DNA of 6,260 bases from a virus (taxonomy: Duplodnaviria; Heunggongvirae; Uroviricota; Caudoviricetes): the IMG/VR virus record IMGVR_UViG_2737471848_000012; one strand, given 5' to 3'. Positions 1 through 4,620 of the stretch are shown one piece after another. The translations under genes were made by a program, and so were the position numbers. The notes beneath the pieces were generated by a model that saw nothing but the letters and a program-made list of their open reading frames with translations, searched no databases and had not been told where the DNA came from. Each line of letters begins with the position of its first letter. The first letter of the stretch is position 1.

Positions 1-82
1 AGTCATATTCGCCCTGACTTTCCAGAACCATACGGGCTGCCCGTTGACGGACTTCAGGGGAAAAACGAGTATTTTTAGTCAT
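1..82 (-). CDS. IS3-family transposase OrfA, N-terminal fragment (partial, 5' end only)
   Basis: Minus-strand ATG at 82..80 translates as MTKNTRFSPEVRQRAARMVLESQGEYD..., matching from memory the N-terminus of IS629/IS1203-type OrfA. RBS GAGG lies upstream (reverse complement of 91-97). The ORF is open to the window edge. Confidence 0.8.
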   Translation of the reverse strand, partial: MTKNTRFSPEVRQRAARMVLESQGEYD

Positions 83-136
83 CCTGTTTACCTCTTTCTC
101 AGGGAGTTTAGTCTCCAGGATTCCCGGGGCGGTTCA
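1..136 (-). mobile_element. Left terminal region of an IS3-family insertion sequence (IS629/IS1203-like); the element continues beyond the window start
   Basis: Reverse complement of 121-136 is TGAACCGCCCCGGGAA, the TGAACCG-type terminal inverted repeat I recall for IS3-family elements. The orfA start codon lies about 55 bp inside this end. The 3 bp at 137-139 (tcg) could be a target-site duplication, but the other end is not in the window. Confidence 0.75.
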
Positions 137-155
137 TCGCGCCCTCAACAATGAG

Positions 156-303: not shown

Positions 304-361
304 AAAAAGGGCGGCAGAGCAGTCACGGAGTAAAACTGATACCGCCAAACGTCACCAGAAA
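304..361 (-). ncRNA. dicF: DicF small regulatory RNA (Hfq-dependent, inhibits ftsZ translation), with its intrinsic terminator
   Basis: Reverse complement of 309-361 reads TTTCTGGTGACGTTTGGCGGTATCAGTTTTACTCCGTGACTGCTCTGCCGCCC, followed by TTTTT (reverse complement of 304-308). This matches my recollection of the 53-nt E. coli DicF sequence and its GC-stem plus U-tract terminator. It lies downstream of the three small genes, as in the Qin ydfABC-dicF-dicB operon. Confidence 0.75.
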
Positions 362-702
362 ATTGATAACAGAGGGCGTTGCAGCGGGGTTGTCACTTAA
401 GCGTATGGTCAACCTGACAACCCGGTGTCCTCAACGGGGGAAGGAATAACCCCGCCATACTTACCGCCGCGCCATTTCGCGGATTGCCACAACCGGAAGC
501 GCACGGTCGACGAAAATTTAACGACAGGCTATCTATGAACCAGCTACCTCGCCGTGCGCTTTCGCGTTATGGTCTGACTTTTCAGGGAAATATCCTTTCA
601 GTAAACTGTCAGTGCCGGATGCTCACCCGTGTCCGGCGCACGCACTCCACCTCACCCGTGGAGAACTCCTTAATTACCAACCTTAGCTTCGTTGGTTAGC
701 TA

Positions 703-921
703 TTAACGCGGGTATGTAATCATTCTGGCAATGCTTAATGCCGCTGCTTTTTCCAGCCTGGTGATATCCTGCTCCAGAGCGGACAGATTTTCAGCCTGCT
801 TAGCCCTGGCTTCATTGGCCCATTTCAGATCCTGCGCTGCATTAATTTTCTGGTGCATCCACTCATAAAGTTCATCATCGGTATAGTCTGGCGCGATGAT
901 GACGGGTTCTCGTTTCTGCAT
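703..921 (-). CDS. ydfC: 72-aa small prophage protein, YdfC-like (Qin dicB-operon family); function unknown
   Basis: ORF with ATG at 921 and RBS GAGGAA 6 nt upstream (reverse complement of 928-933). The predicted C-terminal half is helical and charged. Size and position (third gene before dicF) match Qin ydfC. Symbol is from recollection, not alignment. Confidence 0.55.
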   Translation of the reverse strand: MQKREPVIIAPDYTDDELYEWMHQKINAAQDLKWANEARAKQAENLSALEQDITRLEKAAALSIARMITYPR

Positions 922-950
922 ACTGATTCCTCGCGGTGCTGTTTCGCTTA

Positions 951-1079
951 TCAGCCGTTAGATTTTGCCGAGCTGGAAAGCGCCTGTTTAAATTCGCTGA
1001 AGCTGAGAGCTTCTTCGCCTTCGGCAAGGCCTTCGAAGTATTCTTCGTAAGCCTTTTCCATGATTGTGTCGAAATCCAT
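951..1079 (-). CDS. ydfB: 42-aa acidic small protein, YdfB/YdaG-like; not in the supplied ORF track (below its length cutoff)
   Basis: Hand translation of the minus strand from ATG 1079..1077: MDFDTIMEKAYEEYFEGLAEGEEALSFSEFKQALSSSAKSNG, stop at 953..951. The start lies 1 nt after the upstream gene's TGA (TGA-T-ATG) with RBS GGTGGG just upstream, suggesting translational coupling. Confidence 0.5.
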   Translation of the reverse strand: MDFDTIMEKAYEEYFEGLAEGEEALSFSEFKQALSSSAKSNG

Positions 1080-1080
1080 A

Positions 1081-1236
1081 TCACCCACCTGAATTTCTTT
1101 CCAGCCAGCGACGCGCTCCAGATTCGGTTTTAAACGTTTTGCTTTTGGTATACGTCATCGCGGTGAACGTACCGTCCTGGTTGGGGAACACGCCACATAC
1201 CAGAGATTCGCTGTTGCCAAGATCGATAGTATCCAT
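1081..1236 (-). CDS. ydfA: 51-aa small prophage protein, YdfA/YdaF-like; an alternative upstream start at 1317 would give 78 aa
   Basis: Internal ATG at 1236 with RBS GAGG 5 nt upstream gives MDTIDLGNSESLVCGVFPNQDGTFTAMTYTKSKTFKTESGARRWLERNSGG (51 aa), the size I recall for YdfA/YdaF. The ORF-track start at 1317 also has a GAGG RBS, so the start is ambiguous. Confidence 0.5.
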   Translation of the reverse strand: MDTIDLGNSESLVCGVFPNQDGTFTAMTYTKSKTFKTESGARRWLERNSGG

Positions 1237-1417
1237 GCTGACCTCATTTCCCCTTAACGCCGGGGTAGCGGAACAAAAACCTGCTGCATAGTTATTAAAG
1301 TTGAACCCTGCCGTCATGTTCTTACGCCTCGGGCTGGCTACTTAACCCCTGACCACTGCCTGGTAACTCGAGGTATTGCCCTGTATTGTGTGGGACGGGA
1401 TGGGTTGGTATGGGAAA

Positions 1418-1446
1418 ACTATAGGAAATGCCTAATTACTTGTCAA
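1418..1446 (-). promoter_or_regulatory. Leftward sigma70 promoter (PL-like) for the small-gene/dicF operon
   Basis: On the minus strand: -35 TTGACA (reverse complement of 1441-1446), 17-bp spacer, -10 TATAGT (reverse complement of 1418-1423). The -35 sits inside the 21-bp inverted repeat shared with the rightward promoter. Confidence 0.55.
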
Positions 1447-1459
1447 TAGGCTATGCCTA
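1447..1459. promoter_or_regulatory. Palindromic operator-like site TAGGC-N3-GCCTA (left copy), candidate RacR binding site
   Basis: TAGGCTATGCCTA is palindromic except at its centre and abuts the -35 of the leftward promoter. Extra GCCTAA half-sites lie at 1430-1435 (in the spacer) and 1475-1480. Confidence 0.5.
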
Positions 1460-1554
1460 ATAATTTGGGCGCGACCTAATAGGTGATGGTTTGTGGGAGA
1501 GGTAGTAGGAGTTAACTAACGGGAACTAGGAATTTCCCGTCGGACCATATAAGT

Positions 1555-2031
1555 TTAAGTTCCTGTCTTGGTGATGTTCTGGCTTTTCCGTTTTGATTCT
1601 TGATTTTTCAGATAGTTAGCTACCTTCATTTCCATTGCGGCAATGTAGGCGCGAACGTCATGATCAACCCAACTAGGCTCCGTAGCATTTCCAGATAAGA
1701 GGAAAGCCACAATTGCTCTTTTTTCATCAGAGGCGGCTTGATAAAGGCTGTTTATGTCTAAAAGTTCACTTTTTGTATCTGAAGTGGATGGGGTTGGTAT
1801 GGGGTATTCGTTAAGCCCCCAATGCTCTGGACCAACCACATCAGAAAAGAAACGCCATAGTTCTGGAAGTTTGTCTTTACTTATCGAACCTTTCTTAATC
1901 CAGTCATGGATTGATGGTGGTTGGACTTTGAAATGACGTGCGATTTCCGCCTTTGATTTGACGGCTCCTGATGCAATTTTTTTGTTAATGGCCTGCTCTA
2001 TCGCTCGGCCTAAGTCTTTACCACTAAGCAT
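1555..2031 (-). CDS. racR: RacR-like prophage repressor (158 aa, N-terminal HTH)
   Basis: The 158-aa ORF (MLSGKDLGRAIEQAINKK...) has an N-terminal HTH-like segment (SKAEIARHFKVQPPSIHDWIKKGSI). It is divergent from the Cro-like ydaS and sits between two operator-bearing promoters. Length and sequence match my recollection of K-12 RacR. RBS AGGAGA is the reverse complement of 2042-2047. Confidence 0.7.
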   Translation of the reverse strand: MLSGKDLGRAIEQAINKKIASGAVKSKAEIARHFKVQPPSIHDWIKKGSISKDKLPELWRFFSDVVGPEHWGLNEYPIPTPSTSDTKSELLDINSLYQAASDEKRAIVAFLLSGNATEPSWVDHDVRAYIAAMEMKVANYLKNQESKRKSQNITKTGT

Positions 2032-2888: not shown

Positions 2889-2910
2889 AAGCACGGTGTT
2901 CGGGGGTTTT

Positions 2911-3873
2911 ATGAGCAGCAAGCTTCATGGTCTTGTCTGGGAAGGGTGCGCCTTCACCGGCATGATCTTATCCAGGGTGGCGGTTATGGCCCGTCTTGCA
3001 GACTACAGCAATGACGAGGGCGTGTCATGGCCTGCCATTGAAACTATCCGGCGTCAGATCGGTGCAAGAAGTGAATCCACAGTGAAATCGGCTATTGCAG
3101 AACTGGCGAAAGAGGGCTGGCTGACGAAGGAAGAGCGTAAGGTCGGTGGGCGTAATGTAAGCAATATCTATCGGCTTAATGTGGAAAAACTCGAAGCAGC
3201 TGCTGCGGCGGCGCGTGAGTCATATAAACCGAAAAGAAAAATTAGCCCGGCAAAAAATGACCCGTTAACAGTTGACCCGTCAAATATTGCCCCCTCAACG
3301 GTTGACCCGTCAAATTTTGATGGATCAACTGTTGATAACAAACTGCCGATTAGGGGGGCGATGATTGACCCCGATCCGTCAGTATTAAAACCTGATCCGT
3401 CAGATAAAAGATCTTCTTGTCCGGACGCTTCGCAACCGGACCCGCAGACGGCTGAACAGAATTTTTTAACCCGACACCCTGACGCGGTTGTGTTCAGTGC
3501 GAAAAAACGCCAGTGGGGAAGTCAGGAAGATTTGGTGTGCGCACAGTGGATCTGGGGACGAATCGTGAGTCTTTACGAGCAGGCGGCCAGCGATGATGGC
3601 GAGATCACGAGACCGAAAGAACCCAACTGGACTGCATGGGCCAATGACGTGCGGACAATGCGGATGCTGGATGGCAGAACTCACAGACAAATTTGTGAAA
3701 TGTTTGGGCGTCTCCAGCGGGATTCGTTCTGGGTAAAAAACATCATGAGTCCGGCAAAACTCCGGGAAAAATGGGATGAACTGGTTATCCGCCTGGGGCG
3801 TTCGCCCGCGCAGCGTTGCGTGAATCACATTTCTGAACCGGACACTGAAATACCGCCGGGATTCAGGGGGTGA
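2911..3873 (+). CDS. ydaU: Replication initiator, YdaU-like (lambda O analogue): N-terminal winged-helix DNA-binding domain, repeat-rich linker encoded by the iterons, C-terminal domain
   Basis: ATG at 2911 with GGGGG 4 nt upstream. The ORF-track start at 2896 is a GTG. The N-terminus (ILSRVAVMARLADYSNDEGVSWPAIETIRRQIGARSESTVKSAIAELAKEGWL) resembles phage replication-initiator winged-helix domains. The linker has repeats TVDPSN x2 and DPS-rich segments. It sits directly upstream of the DnaC-like gene. Confidence 0.55.
   Translation: MSSKLHGLVWEGCAFTGMILSRVAVMARLADYSNDEGVSWPAIETIRRQIGARSESTVKSAIAELAKEGWLTKEERKVGGRNVSNIYRLNVEKLEAAAAAARESYKPKRKISPAKNDPLTVDPSNIAPSTVDPSNFDGSTVDNKLPIRGAMIDPDPSVLKPDPSDKRSSCPDASQPDPQTAEQNFLTRHPDAVVFSAKKRQWGSQEDLVCAQWIWGRIVSLYEQAASDDGEITRPKEPNWTAWANDVRTMRMLDGRTHRQICEMFGRLQRDSFWVKNIMSPAKLREKWDELVIRLGRSPAQRCVNHISEPDTEIPPGFRG
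3258..3413. repeat. Iteron array and GATC cluster inside ydaU-like gene: candidate prophage replication origin
   Basis: Perfect 15-mer GTTGACCCGTCAAAT at 3271-3285 and 3301-3315 (30-bp phasing), each with internal dyad TTGAC-CC-GTCAA. Partial copies at 3258-3270 and 3331-3339. A second pair, GATCCGTCAG, at 3373-3382 and 3394-3403 (21-bp phasing). Four GATC sites fall within 91 bp (3323-3413). An AT-rich tract GAATTTTTTAAC follows at 3459-3470. Confidence 0.6.
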
Positions 3874-3879
3874 CGTGTC

Positions 3880-4620
3880 ATGAAAAACATTGCGGCAGTT
3901 GGGGTTCTTGAACGTATTCGCAGACTTGCACCACAGGGGGCGGTTCCACCGTACCGGACGGTGGAGGAGTGGCGGGAATGGCAACTTGCTGAAGGACGAA
4001 AACGCAGCGAGGAGATTAACCGCCTGAATCATCAGGTGCGGGTTGAAAAAATCCTGAACCGTGCGGGCATCCAGCCGCTTCACAGGAAGTGCTCATTCGG
4101 GAACTACCGGGTGCAGAACGACGGTCAGCGCCATGCTCTGAGCCAGGCGAAATCCATTGCCGATGAATTGATGACCGGATGTACAAACTTCGTGTTCAGC
4201 GGTAAACCTGGTACCGGTAAAAATCACCTGGCAGCAGCGATTGGCAATCGGCTGATGGCGAAGGGGAGAAGCGTGATTATCGTCACCGTGTCCGATGTCA
4301 TGAGCGTGTTGCATGACGGCTACGACAACGGCCAGTCCGGGGAAAAATTTTTACAGGAGCTTTGTGGAGTTGACCTTCTGGTCCTTGATGAAATTGGCAT
4401 GCAGCGGGATACGCGCAACGAGCAGGTCACGCTGAACCAGATAGTCGACCGCAGAACGGCTTCGATGCGTAGTGTCGGAATGCTGACGAACCTGAATCAC
4501 GCAGCGATGAGCACACTCCTCGGAGATCGGGTGATGGACCGTATGACCATGAATGGTGGTCGTTGGGTGAATTTTAACTGGGAGAGCTGGCGGTCAAACG
4601 TTGGACGTCAGGGTATGTGA
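3880..4620 (+). CDS. ydaV: DnaC-like AAA+ helicase loader (YdaV-like, 246 aa)
   Basis: Walker A FVFSGKPGTGKNHLAAAIG and Walker B LLVLDEIG, with overall resemblance to E. coli DnaC. Length equals K-12 YdaV (246 aa). RBS GGGGGTGA upstream; the start follows the ydaU stop by 6 nt. Confidence 0.7.
   Translation: MKNIAAVGVLERIRRLAPQGAVPPYRTVEEWREWQLAEGRKRSEEINRLNHQVRVEKILNRAGIQPLHRKCSFGNYRVQNDGQRHALSQAKSIADELMTGCTNFVFSGKPGTGKNHLAAAIGNRLMAKGRSVIIVTVSDVMSVLHDGYDNGQSGEKFLQELCGVDLLVLDEIGMQRDTRNEQVTLNQIVDRRTASMRSVGMLTNLNHAAMSTLLGDRVMDRMTMNGGRWVNFNWESWRSNVGRQGM

Follow-up and report, generated by a model that had tools for sequence, protein, structure and literature searches.

The window analysed here, a 6,260-nucleotide stretch of caudoviral DNA taken as a whole, carries three small genes on its minus strand, which encode proteins of 51 aa (1081..1236), 42 aa (951..1079) and 72 aa (703..921). 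They are very probably ydfA, ydfB and ydfC, the first three cistrons of the early-left dicBF operon in a lambdoid E. coli prophage of the RacR immunity type, and these are known, catalogued genes rather than an unannotated discovery. All three are annotated by RefSeq (as ydfC, ydfB and DUF1391) in a strain that is 100% identical to the window, and a match is found in 4400 of 5426 complete E. coli genomes. In tblastn comparisons with the K-12 proteins, the identities were 94% for YdfA, 100% for YdfB (over 42 aa) and 97% for YdfC (97.2% over 72 aa), and the genes fall into PHROG families 751 (ydfA), 2061 (ydfB; profile match with E = 1.3e-27) and 1744 (ydfC; E = 1.3e-39). The homology to YdfA/YdfB/YdfC and YdaF that had been suggested in the original prediction is exactly right, as seen from Pfam, RefSeq, tblastn and the K-12 loci; a link to YdaG suggested at the same time did not hold, since ydaG of the Rac prophage is not a homologue of ydfB and fills the first-gene slot ahead of ydaF.

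Operon context and immunity module

The gap between ydfA and ydfB is 1 nt and that between ydfB and ydfC is 29 nt, and both spacings recur in the Qin prophage of K-12, in phage Tritos and at locus L011. Downstream of ydfC and on the same strand, as expected of a dicBF operon, lies the DicF sRNA (309..360, minus strand; Rfam RF00039, 76.7 bits against a gathering score of 48, E = 3.5e-16, full model length), and positions 136-720 of the window are 97.6% identical to K-12 Qin. It has been reported that in K-12 the transcript starting upstream of ydfA is the DicF precursor, which RNase E and RNase III cleave (PMC10448788). The genes dicB and ydfD, which are carried by an uninterrupted relative (locus L001), are not found after DicF within the window, where their place is occupied by the end of an IS3-family insertion sequence (1..137, minus strand) by which the operon is broken immediately ahead of dicB. 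The match to the uninterrupted prophage ends at window position 136, which corresponds to L001 5537 and lies 2 nt upstream of the dicB ATG (L001 5535); over 1-137, the window shows 100% identity to elements that carry the annotation IS3 family transposase. An orfA-like reading, MTKNTRFSPEVRQRA..., is present in this IS3-family end at 91..1.

The early-left position that had been assigned to the three genes was borne out: they head the operon, downstream of a strong pL-like promoter (TTGACA-17-TATAGT, 1418..1446, minus strand, 11 of 12 consensus positions) with operators common to the rightward promoter. The operator repeats TAGGnnnnGCCTAA, at 1422-1437 and 1447-1462, overlap the early-left promoter, and a 21-nt perfect inverted repeat of operator and -35 sequence is common to the leftward and rightward promoters (1440-1460, 2085-2105). 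The repressor gene at 1555..2031 on the minus strand is racR, as identified by the NCBIfam equivalog NF049929 (246.8 bits against a cutoff of 200) and named also in RefSeq. Repression by DicA from a dicA-dicC region, a trait of the Qin-type dicBF operon, was not found in the window, where the repressor is RacR and the divergent genes are ydaS- and ydaT-like; the operon module is the same as that of Qin-type dicBF and the immunity module is different. In K-12, the operon is silent as long as the repressor is active, and displacement of RacR has been reported to derepress ydaF and ydaG 40- to 70-fold (PMC11014345). In the prophage studied here, ydfA, ydfB and ydfC would be transcribed only once RacR repression lifts.

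Among the closest known systems, ydfA-ydfB-ydfC of Qin in E. coli K-12 (b1571-b1573) shares with the window the gene order, the two spacings and a long untranslated region with DicF downstream. However, its repressor is DicA and not RacR, the promoter and the ~135-nt upstream leader of the window are of the Rac type, with Qin joining at ~1274, and in the window an IS3-family element lies where dicB should start. The Rac locus ydaG-ydaF of K-12 and the window agree in RacR, in promoter and operators, in the conserved ATG-containing leader and in the conserved block that precedes the first gene, and Rac YdaF is a DUF1391 protein with 86% identity to YdfA. In contrast, the first gene in Rac is ydaG, the leader ATG opens an 18-codon uORF ending in TAA, and ydfB, ydfC and dicF are missing, with sieB and kilR following. 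The early-left genes of lambda (ral, kil, cIII and gam among others), which encode small, non-essential accessory proteins expressed from the leftward early promoter, are alike in position and style; no match in sequence, family or fold was found between these genes and YdfA, YdfB or YdfC, and the window showed neither an N gene nor a nutL-type site.

Coding evidence and properties of the three proteins

Read directly from the sequence and recomputed, the junction between the first two genes is as originally proposed: the TGA stop of ydfA (1083..1081, minus strand) is separated by a single T at 1080 from the ATG of the 42-aa ORF (1079..1077), the junction reading AGGTGGGTGAtATG, and this ORF ends in a TGA at 953..951 and encodes a strongly acidic protein (D+E = 10, K+R = 3, net charge -7, pI 4.05). 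The ribosome-binding site attributed to it is present as an SD-like AGGTGG with -6.9 kcal/mol against the anti-SD sequence. That the ORF is missing from the ORF track holds as a length-threshold effect, but not as a sign of novelty, since RefSeq and K-12 annotate ydfB; an ORF listing at a 25 aa cutoff gives ydfB as 951..1088, with 45 aa from an in-frame GTG. Taken alone, the 42-aa ORF is not beyond chance because the window holds 80 ORFs of at least 25 aa. We consider ydfB to be real because it is conserved, as indicated by its identity to K-12 YdfB, the excess of synonymous changes and the recurring 1-nt and 29-nt spacings. The conserved TGA-T-ATG spacing fits a possible translational coupling of ydfA and ydfB, and ydfB, which besides having its own SD sits as the first gene elsewhere, would be translated either by ribosomes terminating at the ydfA stop or via this SD. 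The 72-aa gene is preceded by the GAGGAA ribosome-binding site that had been noted, with a start at 921, an end at 703 and GAGGAAtcagtATG upstream (-5.9 kcal/mol).

The substitution pattern is compatible with coding in all three genes, with pN/pS values of 0.13-0.29 for ydfA (p = 2.6e-8 against Rac), 0-0.46 for ydfB (p = 4e-4 against phiES15) and 0.27-0.80 for ydfC. For the 42-aa ORF, the pN/pS and Fisher tests gave an excess of synonymous changes. All three are taken as genuine coding genes; purifying selection is clear on ydfA and ydfB and only weak on ydfC, and the protein alignments of the three families contain conservative substitutions.

In its 78-aa form, YdfA matches Pfam PF07151 (DUF1391) over positions 1-48 of the 48-position model, with 95.3 bits against a cutoff of 27.3. 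Its AF2 model (pLDDT 80) has a beta3-alpha fold, and homology to the AP2 domain on the sequence level was tried and rejected. Searches of PDB sequences with YdfA, YdfB and YdfC gave chance or coiled-coil matches only, the latter weak in the case of YdfC; one weak PDB match, to a head-decoration protein (E = 0.22), is probably the cause of a recurring mis-annotation of YdfA. In the YdfC alignment, the N-terminal 22 residues are conserved and are followed by a variable coiled-coil-like helix, and Pfam, NCBIfam and PADLOC scans with this protein gave nothing usable.

The YdfB family comprises 83 cluster representatives in 1.84 billion and has the invariant motif YFxxLxEGEEALSFxEF, also written YFxSLxEGEEALSFxEF for mini-proteins of 30-50 aa. 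YdfB has no match in Pfam, NCBIfam or PADLOC. Its AF2 model (pLDDT 85) consists of two predicted helices (residues 3-16 and 27-39) joined by a 10-residue loop, and a Foldseek search of this model against the PDB gave zero hits; the predicted structures of YdfA and YdfB are at present weak fold leads only. The helix-loop-helix arrangement is reminiscent of an EF-hand, and the segment ALSFSEFKQAL aligns with TIDFPEFLTMM of calmodulin EF-hand 2, though with an hhalign probability of only 5.7%. In YdfB, however, L, E and E occupy positions 1, 3 and 6 of the loop, where the canonical EF-hand has D, D/N/S and G, and no Pfam EF-hand hit was obtained at E <= 10; membership of YdfB in this family was rejected. 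The YdfB profile also hits large proteins with multiple repeats, which are Calx-beta or Big_5 proteins, and these hits are spurious; a 205-aa ORF of HannyBb, like other long 'YdfB-containing' proteins, seems to be a fusion that arose from over-calling or frame-shifting. We also note that P0351 ('ORF 1') is a natural fusion artefact with YdfA and YdfB segments, and that a 29-aa YdfB variant is known from a sole contig of 1.1 kb.

Module junctions are located at window 1274 and 921, and ydfA, ydfB and ydfC are independent accessory modules because the three genes also occur separately. In Citrobacter and phiES15 the first position is taken by ydfB without the other two, ydfC is found alone in the PPompW and 640R1 phages, and DUF1391 is present without ydfB or ydfC in Rac and at locus L013. 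An obligate YdfA-YdfB complex is unlikely for the same reason.

Possible functions

The functions of ydfA, ydfB and ydfC, described as unknown in the original prediction, are also stated to be unknown in published work (PMC5069750, PMC10448788, PMC11430063, PMC11014345). The products would be small, non-enzymatic accessory proteins acting through partner binding, with YdfA as a predicted beta3-alpha domain, a kind often contacting nucleic acid, YdfB as a predicted acidic helix-loop-helix, and YdfC as a variable coiled coil headed by a conserved N-terminal peptide. It has been proposed that these proteins are anti-defence or host-takeover factors, which on induction or infection would attach to defence or housekeeping proteins of the host and disable them, in the manner of Ral, Gam, Kil or CIII of lambda. 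We regard this as possible but doubtful. The location directly behind the early-left promoter, the small size and non-enzymatic nature of the products, the strong acidity of YdfB and the mosaic, moron-like spread among functional temperate phages (Tritos, HannyBb, mEp460 and phiES15) are all consistent with it, as is the representative P0402, in which an S-AdoMet-lyase-like fragment and a YdfB-like segment are joined. However, position alone is weak evidence, and no match was found in PADLOC, in the PDB or, beyond a DUF, in Pfam. Furthermore, an induced operon without dicF and dicB but with ydfABC has been reported to be neither toxic nor filament-forming and to leave cell morphology unchanged (PMC5069750), and exclusion of lambda-vir rests on dicB, the deletion of which is alone sufficient to abolish it (PMC6832061).

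A second explanation, which we consider rather unlikely, is that the role of these ORFs is mainly in cis: as a spacer under translation, they would hold ribosomes on the long transcript of the early-left operon and shield it against Rho termination and RNase, so that DicF, DicB and the downstream recombination genes are expressed; the sequence of the peptides would then matter little. The leader opens with a C-rich, G-poor and weakly structured segment (1410..1385; fold z = +1.3), which are the properties of rut sites, the cistrons are tightly packed, and pN/pS of ydfC is 0.67-0.80. In addition, it has been found that the upstream ydfA part becomes less stable when RNase E processes the transcript at dicF (PMC10448788). 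This explanation is difficult to reconcile with the clear purifying selection on ydfA and ydfB, the retention of the YdfB motif in distant mini-proteins and the presence of ydfB and DUF1391 in operons without dicF. For ydfC, which is weakly constrained overall, part of the role could nevertheless be in cis.

Start codon of ydfA and the 5' leader RNA

The start of the first gene had been regarded as ambiguous, with ATG codons at 1236 and 1317 each preceded by a ribosome-binding site. SD-like sequences are indeed present at both: ATG 1236 has a GAGGT 5 nt upstream plus UAAGGGGA (-8.1 kcal/mol against the anti-SD) and ATG 1317 a GAGG 8-9 nt upstream (-5.9 kcal/mol), an anti-SD score of -6 kcal/mol being reached by only 11% of minus-strand ATGs. 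Comparison across loci decides this ambiguity in favour of 1236, and against 1317, as the conserved start of ydfA. The 51-aa start, at the Met of MDTIDLG, and its SD are kept in the window, Qin, Tritos, HannyBb, L011 and L013, and RefSeq gives the first gene a length of 51 aa in the 100%-identical strain. PF07151 matches the 51-aa form with 96.9 bits, and on the 78-aa form its match is confined to residues 29-76. ydfA would thus be translated from ATG 1236, and the 27 in-frame codons that lengthen it to the 78-aa reading (1237..1317, minus strand) are judged to be leader rather than conserved coding sequence. Across prophages, the ORF that opens at the leader ATG has 4, 6, 6, 9, 18, 45 or 77-78 codons, indels that are not multiples of 3 fall between 1305 and 1275, and Qin-type and other immunity types join at ~1274 with upstream sequence that is unrelated and without an ATG. 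A functional 78-aa protein that starts at 1317 and includes the N-terminal 27 residues is unlikely: the SD-like GAGG precedes this ATG, and the ORF is open in the window, Tritos, L013 and 2452 of 5426 complete genomes and so annotated in many records (e.g. Tritos and cluster P0236, with 725 members), which makes an extended isoform possible, but the two variants of the extension, FNFNNYAAGFCS and TLYITAQQVFSS, read similar DNA in shifted frames, the same ATG elsewhere opens ORFs of 4-45 codons, the Pfam and RefSeq models start at the internal Met, Qin-type loci have no upstream ATG, and AF2 predicts disorder already at residues 1-9 of 51-aa YdfA. ATG 1317 would rather belong to a conserved 5' leader RNA and be fused in frame to ydfA only through the local indel pattern.

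The least expected feature of the region is a conserved, covarying hairpin in this leader (1353..1393, minus strand), with a conserved apical loop, CAAUACCUCGAGUUA, at 1378..1364. In the RNAalifold consensus, 8 pairs of the hairpin have compensatory changes; 95.4% of its cells are paired, compared with 85.4% in shuffles and 31-42% in slid controls, and its covariation score is 0.285 against 0.107 in shuffles (0 of 500 shuffles). The leader as a whole is not unusually stable (fold z = +1.3), and the support is limited to the hairpin. The hairpin is followed by a conserved block, CUAAGUAGCCAGCCCGAGGCGUAAGAACAUGACGGC (1310..1346, minus strand), which contains the SD-like GAGG and ATG 1317. An exact-pattern scan, in which invariance inside the pattern is by construction, found this block in E. 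coli, Shigella, E. ruysiae, Superficieibacter, Serratia and Arsenophonus, and the pattern is present also at a Citrobacter locus (L008); in every case checked the leader block is just downstream of a repressor gene. Closer to the coding region lies a conserved translation-initiation block, GTTCCGCYACCCCGGCGTTAAGGGGAAATGAGGTCAGC (1240..1274, minus strand), which stands ahead of whichever gene is first, namely ydfA in the window, Qin, HannyBb and L011, ydaG in Rac, and ydfB in phiES15 and Citrobacter.

The leader resembles lambda nutL and HK022 putL in being a conserved structured RNA that closely follows the leftward early promoter and does not depend on the next gene. It differs from these in having no copy after the rightward promoter and no Rfam match. 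A covariance model detected exactly one leader copy at each locus, and neither in the window nor in 15 other loci did it find one downstream of the rightward promoter; pattern searches agree; a nut/put-type pair was rejected in the absence of a second copy, and a known Rfam family in the absence of Rfam hits. By BLAST, the leader is found in only 15 phage records and is annotated in none of them, and a literature search for its sequence found nothing.

Implications

Taking these observations together, we tentatively propose that ATG 1317 lies in an undescribed cis-regulatory leader RNA of the early-left operon and, separately, that YdfB represents a widespread mini-protein family. The leader consists of the covarying hairpin with its invariant 15-nt loop (1393..1353) and, after it, the conserved SD-AUG block (1346..1310), and it is common to prophages of Escherichia, Citrobacter, Superficieibacter, Serratia and Arsenophonus, irrespective of the gene that comes next. 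It could act as a short uORF or as an RNA switch over Rho-dependent termination, stability or translation of the leftward early transcript, and such control could concern lambdoid phages without N. The YdfB-type mini-proteins of 30-50 aa may have a specific ligand or partner.

As found, the three genes in themselves matter little, having been in the K-12 annotation for decades and being carried by the majority of E. coli genomes. In many records of phages and genomes, the first gene has a length of 77-103 aa or the name 'head-DNA stabilization protein D', and ydfB is missing from some; the comparative evidence fixes the 51-aa (ydfA) and 42-aa (ydfB) readings for annotation. Since ydfA, ydfB and ydfC occur in thousands of E. 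coli strains, among them ones with Shiga-toxin prophage backgrounds, any function assigned to them would be widely relevant, and the conserved leader upstream may be an undescribed regulatory element of the early-left operon.

Results

The window comes from a lambdoid E. coli prophage and represents its immunity and early region. Its minus strand carries racR (2031..1555; NCBIfam RacR equivalog, 246.8 bits), a strong leftward promoter TTGACA-17-TATAGT (1446..1418) with TAGGnnnnGCCTAA operator repeats on both sides, a leader of about 175 nt between this promoter and the first small ORF, the three small ORFs (ydfA, 1236..1081; ydfB, 1079..951; ydfC, 921..703) and, beyond an untranslated stretch of 340 nt, the DicF sRNA (360..309; Rfam RF00039, 76.7 bits). 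On the plus strand, ydaS-like and ydaT-like genes were recognized by Pfam, and RefSeq annotates two large ORFs in an identical strain as encoding an HTH-domain protein (2896-3873) and an ATP-binding protein (3880-4620). Repeated GTTGACCCGTCAAAT-like units inside the former (3255-3340, plus strand) encode TVDPSN protein repeats and may be likened to the lambdoid origin iterons situated in the replication initiator gene. A perfect 21-nt inverted repeat, TTGTCAATAGGCTATGCCTAA, links the leftward and rightward promoters (1440-1460 and 2085-2105), each copy holding the -35 hexamer together with an operator, and further TAGGnnnnGCCTAA repeats are spaced 25 nt apart in regions 1422-1462 and 2061-2127; together these are presumed to form the RacR operator set. 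In addition, two exact copies of the 13-nt sequence GGGTTGGTATGGG are present, one right where the leader transcript region begins (1402-1414) and one within the racR coding sequence (1791-1803), a duplication within 750 nt that is unlikely to have arisen by chance. The end of an IS3-family element (1-137), with an orfA-like reading MTKNTRFSPEVRQRA... (91..1), lies 2 nt upstream of the position of the dicB ATG in the uninterrupted relative L001, and the cell-division inhibitor gene dicB is therefore severed here from its operon promoter and ribosome-binding site.

The small-gene trio is already known. The record of a 100%-identical strain in RefSeq lists ydfC (72 aa) and ydfB (42 aa), a 51-aa protein of the DUF1391 family and then racR; the Qin prophage of K-12 has the same trio in the order ydfA-ydfB-ydfC-dicF-dicB-ydfD, with amino acid identities of 94%, 100% and 97%; and the three products match PHROGs 751, 2061 and 1744, each labelled 'unknown function'. 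The trio is thus a rediscovery, and while the original prediction had guessed the YdfA/YdfB/YdfC homology and the early-left position correctly, a novelty of these genes is not supported. The Rac prophage of K-12 has the order racR-ydaG-ydaF, YdaF being its DUF1391 protein. By megablast, 4400 of 5426 complete E. coli genomes match window positions 600-1600, with a median of two places per genome. In several phage records (ON470583, ON470580, PV340562 and others; hits H22, H24, H25 and H41-H43) the DUF1391 gene is labelled 'head-DNA stabilization protein D'. This is probably a propagated mis-annotation, as the sole basis found is that residues 18-39 of YdfA match head decoration proteins of phages at chance level (E = 0.22).

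The described junction was confirmed, with the TGA stop of ydfA at 1083..1081, a T at 1080 and the ATG of ydfB at 1079..1077. The 42-aa product MDFDTIMEKAYEEYFEGLAEGEEALSFSEFKQALSSSAKSNG is acidic as claimed (net charge -7, pI 4.05), its absence from the earlier ORF track being due solely to its shortness, and GAGGAA precedes ATG 921 of the 72-aa ORF by 5 nt. The original prediction had named a synonymous-site pattern at odds with coding as one result that would count against it. For ydfA, pN/pS against homologues is 0.13-0.29 (Fisher synonymous excess p = 2.6e-8 versus Rac ydaF), for ydfB 0-0.46 (p = 4e-4 versus phiES15; p = 0.048 versus Citrobacter) and for ydfC 0.27-0.80 (p = 0.045 versus locus L011), and replacements are conservative in the protein alignments. 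Judged from these comparisons, ydfA and ydfB are clearly coding, and ydfC is coding with loose constraint beyond its N terminus. In YdfB an invariant core is formed by M7, Y11, E12, Y14, F15, E20 and S26. In YdfC, the N-terminal MQKREPVIIAPDYTDDELYEWM is nearly invariant (alignment A2), as are residues 1-22 generally, and the variable helix that follows falls to 57-60% identity with a pN/pS of 0.67.

The predicted structure of YdfB (pLDDT 85) has helices at residues 3-16 and 27-39 joined by a 10-residue loop, and gave no Foldseek matches in the PDB. When 1.84 billion representatives were searched with a YdfB profile, just 83 proteins, nearly all of 20-100 aa, were found to share the motif Y-x-x-Y-F-x-S-L-x-E-G-E-E-A-L-S-F-x-E-F. 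One of them, the predicted 87-aa protein P0402, joins an S-adenosylmethionine-lyase-like N-terminal part (PF23780, E = 9e-11) to a YdfB-like C-terminal segment, which may be the trace of a ydfB-type gene adjoining an anti-restriction gene in some phage. The second half of YdfB aligns to the EF-hand 2 loop and exit helix of calmodulin with 5.7% probability and non-canonical ligand positions, and is a lead only. YdfC gave weak matches of coiled-coil type and nothing else.

The original prediction had left the ydfA start ambiguous between 1236 and 1317, and SD-like sequences do precede both. Five observations favour 1236. The Pfam model and the RefSeq entry begin at this internal methionine, other phages have mosaic junctions at window position 1274, within the putative N-terminal extension, and in Qin-type, HannyBb and L011 loci the upstream sequence is unrelated and without an in-frame ATG. 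A 35-nt block, GTTCCGCYACCCCGGCGTTAAGGGGA...GAGGTCAGC (1240-1274, minus strand), abuts ATG 1236 on its upstream side and is found across different immunity types, with recombination junctions recurring at about 1274, ahead of any first early-left gene, be it ydfA, ydaG (Rac) or ydfB (phiES15, Citrobacter); it is a non-coding translation-initiation and junction block. Between 1305 and 1275, the relatives differ in indels whose lengths are not divisible by three, and the 'N-terminal extension' variants FNFNNYAAGFCS and TLYITAQQVFSS of protein databases are similar DNA read in shifted frames. ATG 1317 is conserved, and its ORF has 4, 6, 6, 9, 18, 45 or 77-78 codons depending on the prophage. A minor extended isoform of 78 aa may also be made, in keeping with an ORF of this length being open in 2452 complete genomes and annotated in many records.

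Each of the three genes was also found apart from the others. Homologues of ydfB are the first early-left gene, without ydfA or ydfC, in a Citrobacter prophage (L008 3001-3129; 71% identical), where sieB, kilR, ydaE and recE follow, and in Cronobacter phage phiES15 (L007 3040-3165; 78% identical), where the copy is unannotated in the phage record. A lone ydfC is present in PPompW phages, Stx2a phages and vB_EcoS-640R1, the homology beginning exactly at its ATG, and mosaic junctions of other phages coincide with this codon (window 921). DUF1391 genes are accompanied by neither ydfB nor ydfC in Rac and in the E. coli prophage locus L013. Given this separability, YdfA and YdfB are unlikely to form an obligate complex, even though their genes show the 1-nt coupling arrangement. 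In L013 (1927-3234) a 124-aa unknown protein takes the place of ydfB and ydfC, and a paaR2-paaA2-parE2 toxin-antitoxin module lies between the divergent promoter region and the leader with its DUF1391 gene. A 205-aa annotated ORF of phage HannyBb (L006 3154-3771; PHROG 35040) consists of YdfB residues 1-34 followed by unrelated low-complexity sequence, and has the look of a fusion by recombination or frameshift rather than of a longer YdfB.

The leader is conserved from the transcription start to 1310 in the window, Rac of K-12, phage Tritos, L013 and Citrobacter; leader loci comprise window 1310-1393 (minus strand) and compared loci L003, L004, L005, L008, L013-L017, L020 and L023. Each locus has a single copy, and searches downstream of the rightward promoter gave no second one. 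An alignment of 12 sequences supports a hairpin (1393..1353) whose loop, CAAUACYNCGAGUUA, is invariant and in which eight pairs show compensatory changes; paired cells amount to 95.4%, versus 85.4% in shuffles and 31-42% in slid controls, and the covariation score is 0.285 versus 0.107 in shuffles. The 3' SD-AUG block (1346..1310, minus strand) contains GAGG and ATG 1317. An exact-pattern scan, whose design in part produces the invariance of this block, found it in Superficieibacter, two Serratia species and Arsenophonus, in every case just downstream of a gene for a repressor, the first genes behind it being unrelated. The leader has no Rfam match, is unannotated in 15 phage records, and a literature search on its sequence gave no match.

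Discussion

Most likely, ydfA, ydfB and ydfC are accessory cistrons at the promoter-proximal end of the early-left transcript and are under repressor control; displacement of RacR raises ydaF and ydaG 40- to 70-fold, and the function of the racR-proximal ydaFG operon is given as undetermined (PMC11014345). Translation would start at 1236, 1079 and 921, ribosomes terminating 1 nt upstream would probably aid ydfB initiation, the products would be small binding proteins rather than enzymes, and the trio mRNA would also serve as the 5' portion of the DicF precursor. When the K-12 operon was induced without dicF and dicB, with ydfABC still expressed, growth, viability and morphology were normal (PMC5069750), and dicB deletion alone abolishes lambda-vir resistance (PMC6832061). 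The selection pattern of ydfA and ydfB makes a role mainly in cis, by loading ribosomes, less likely for these two genes. The anti-defence activity put forward in the original prediction is possible but unsupported.

The useful outcomes for this locus are a resolved ydfA start, the demonstration that its genes are modules independent of one another, a motif for YdfB mini-proteins and a conserved leader RNA. The last is the unexpected element of the locus, and the natural hypothesis would be that a short uORF or the RNA itself controls how the leftward transcript is terminated or translated.
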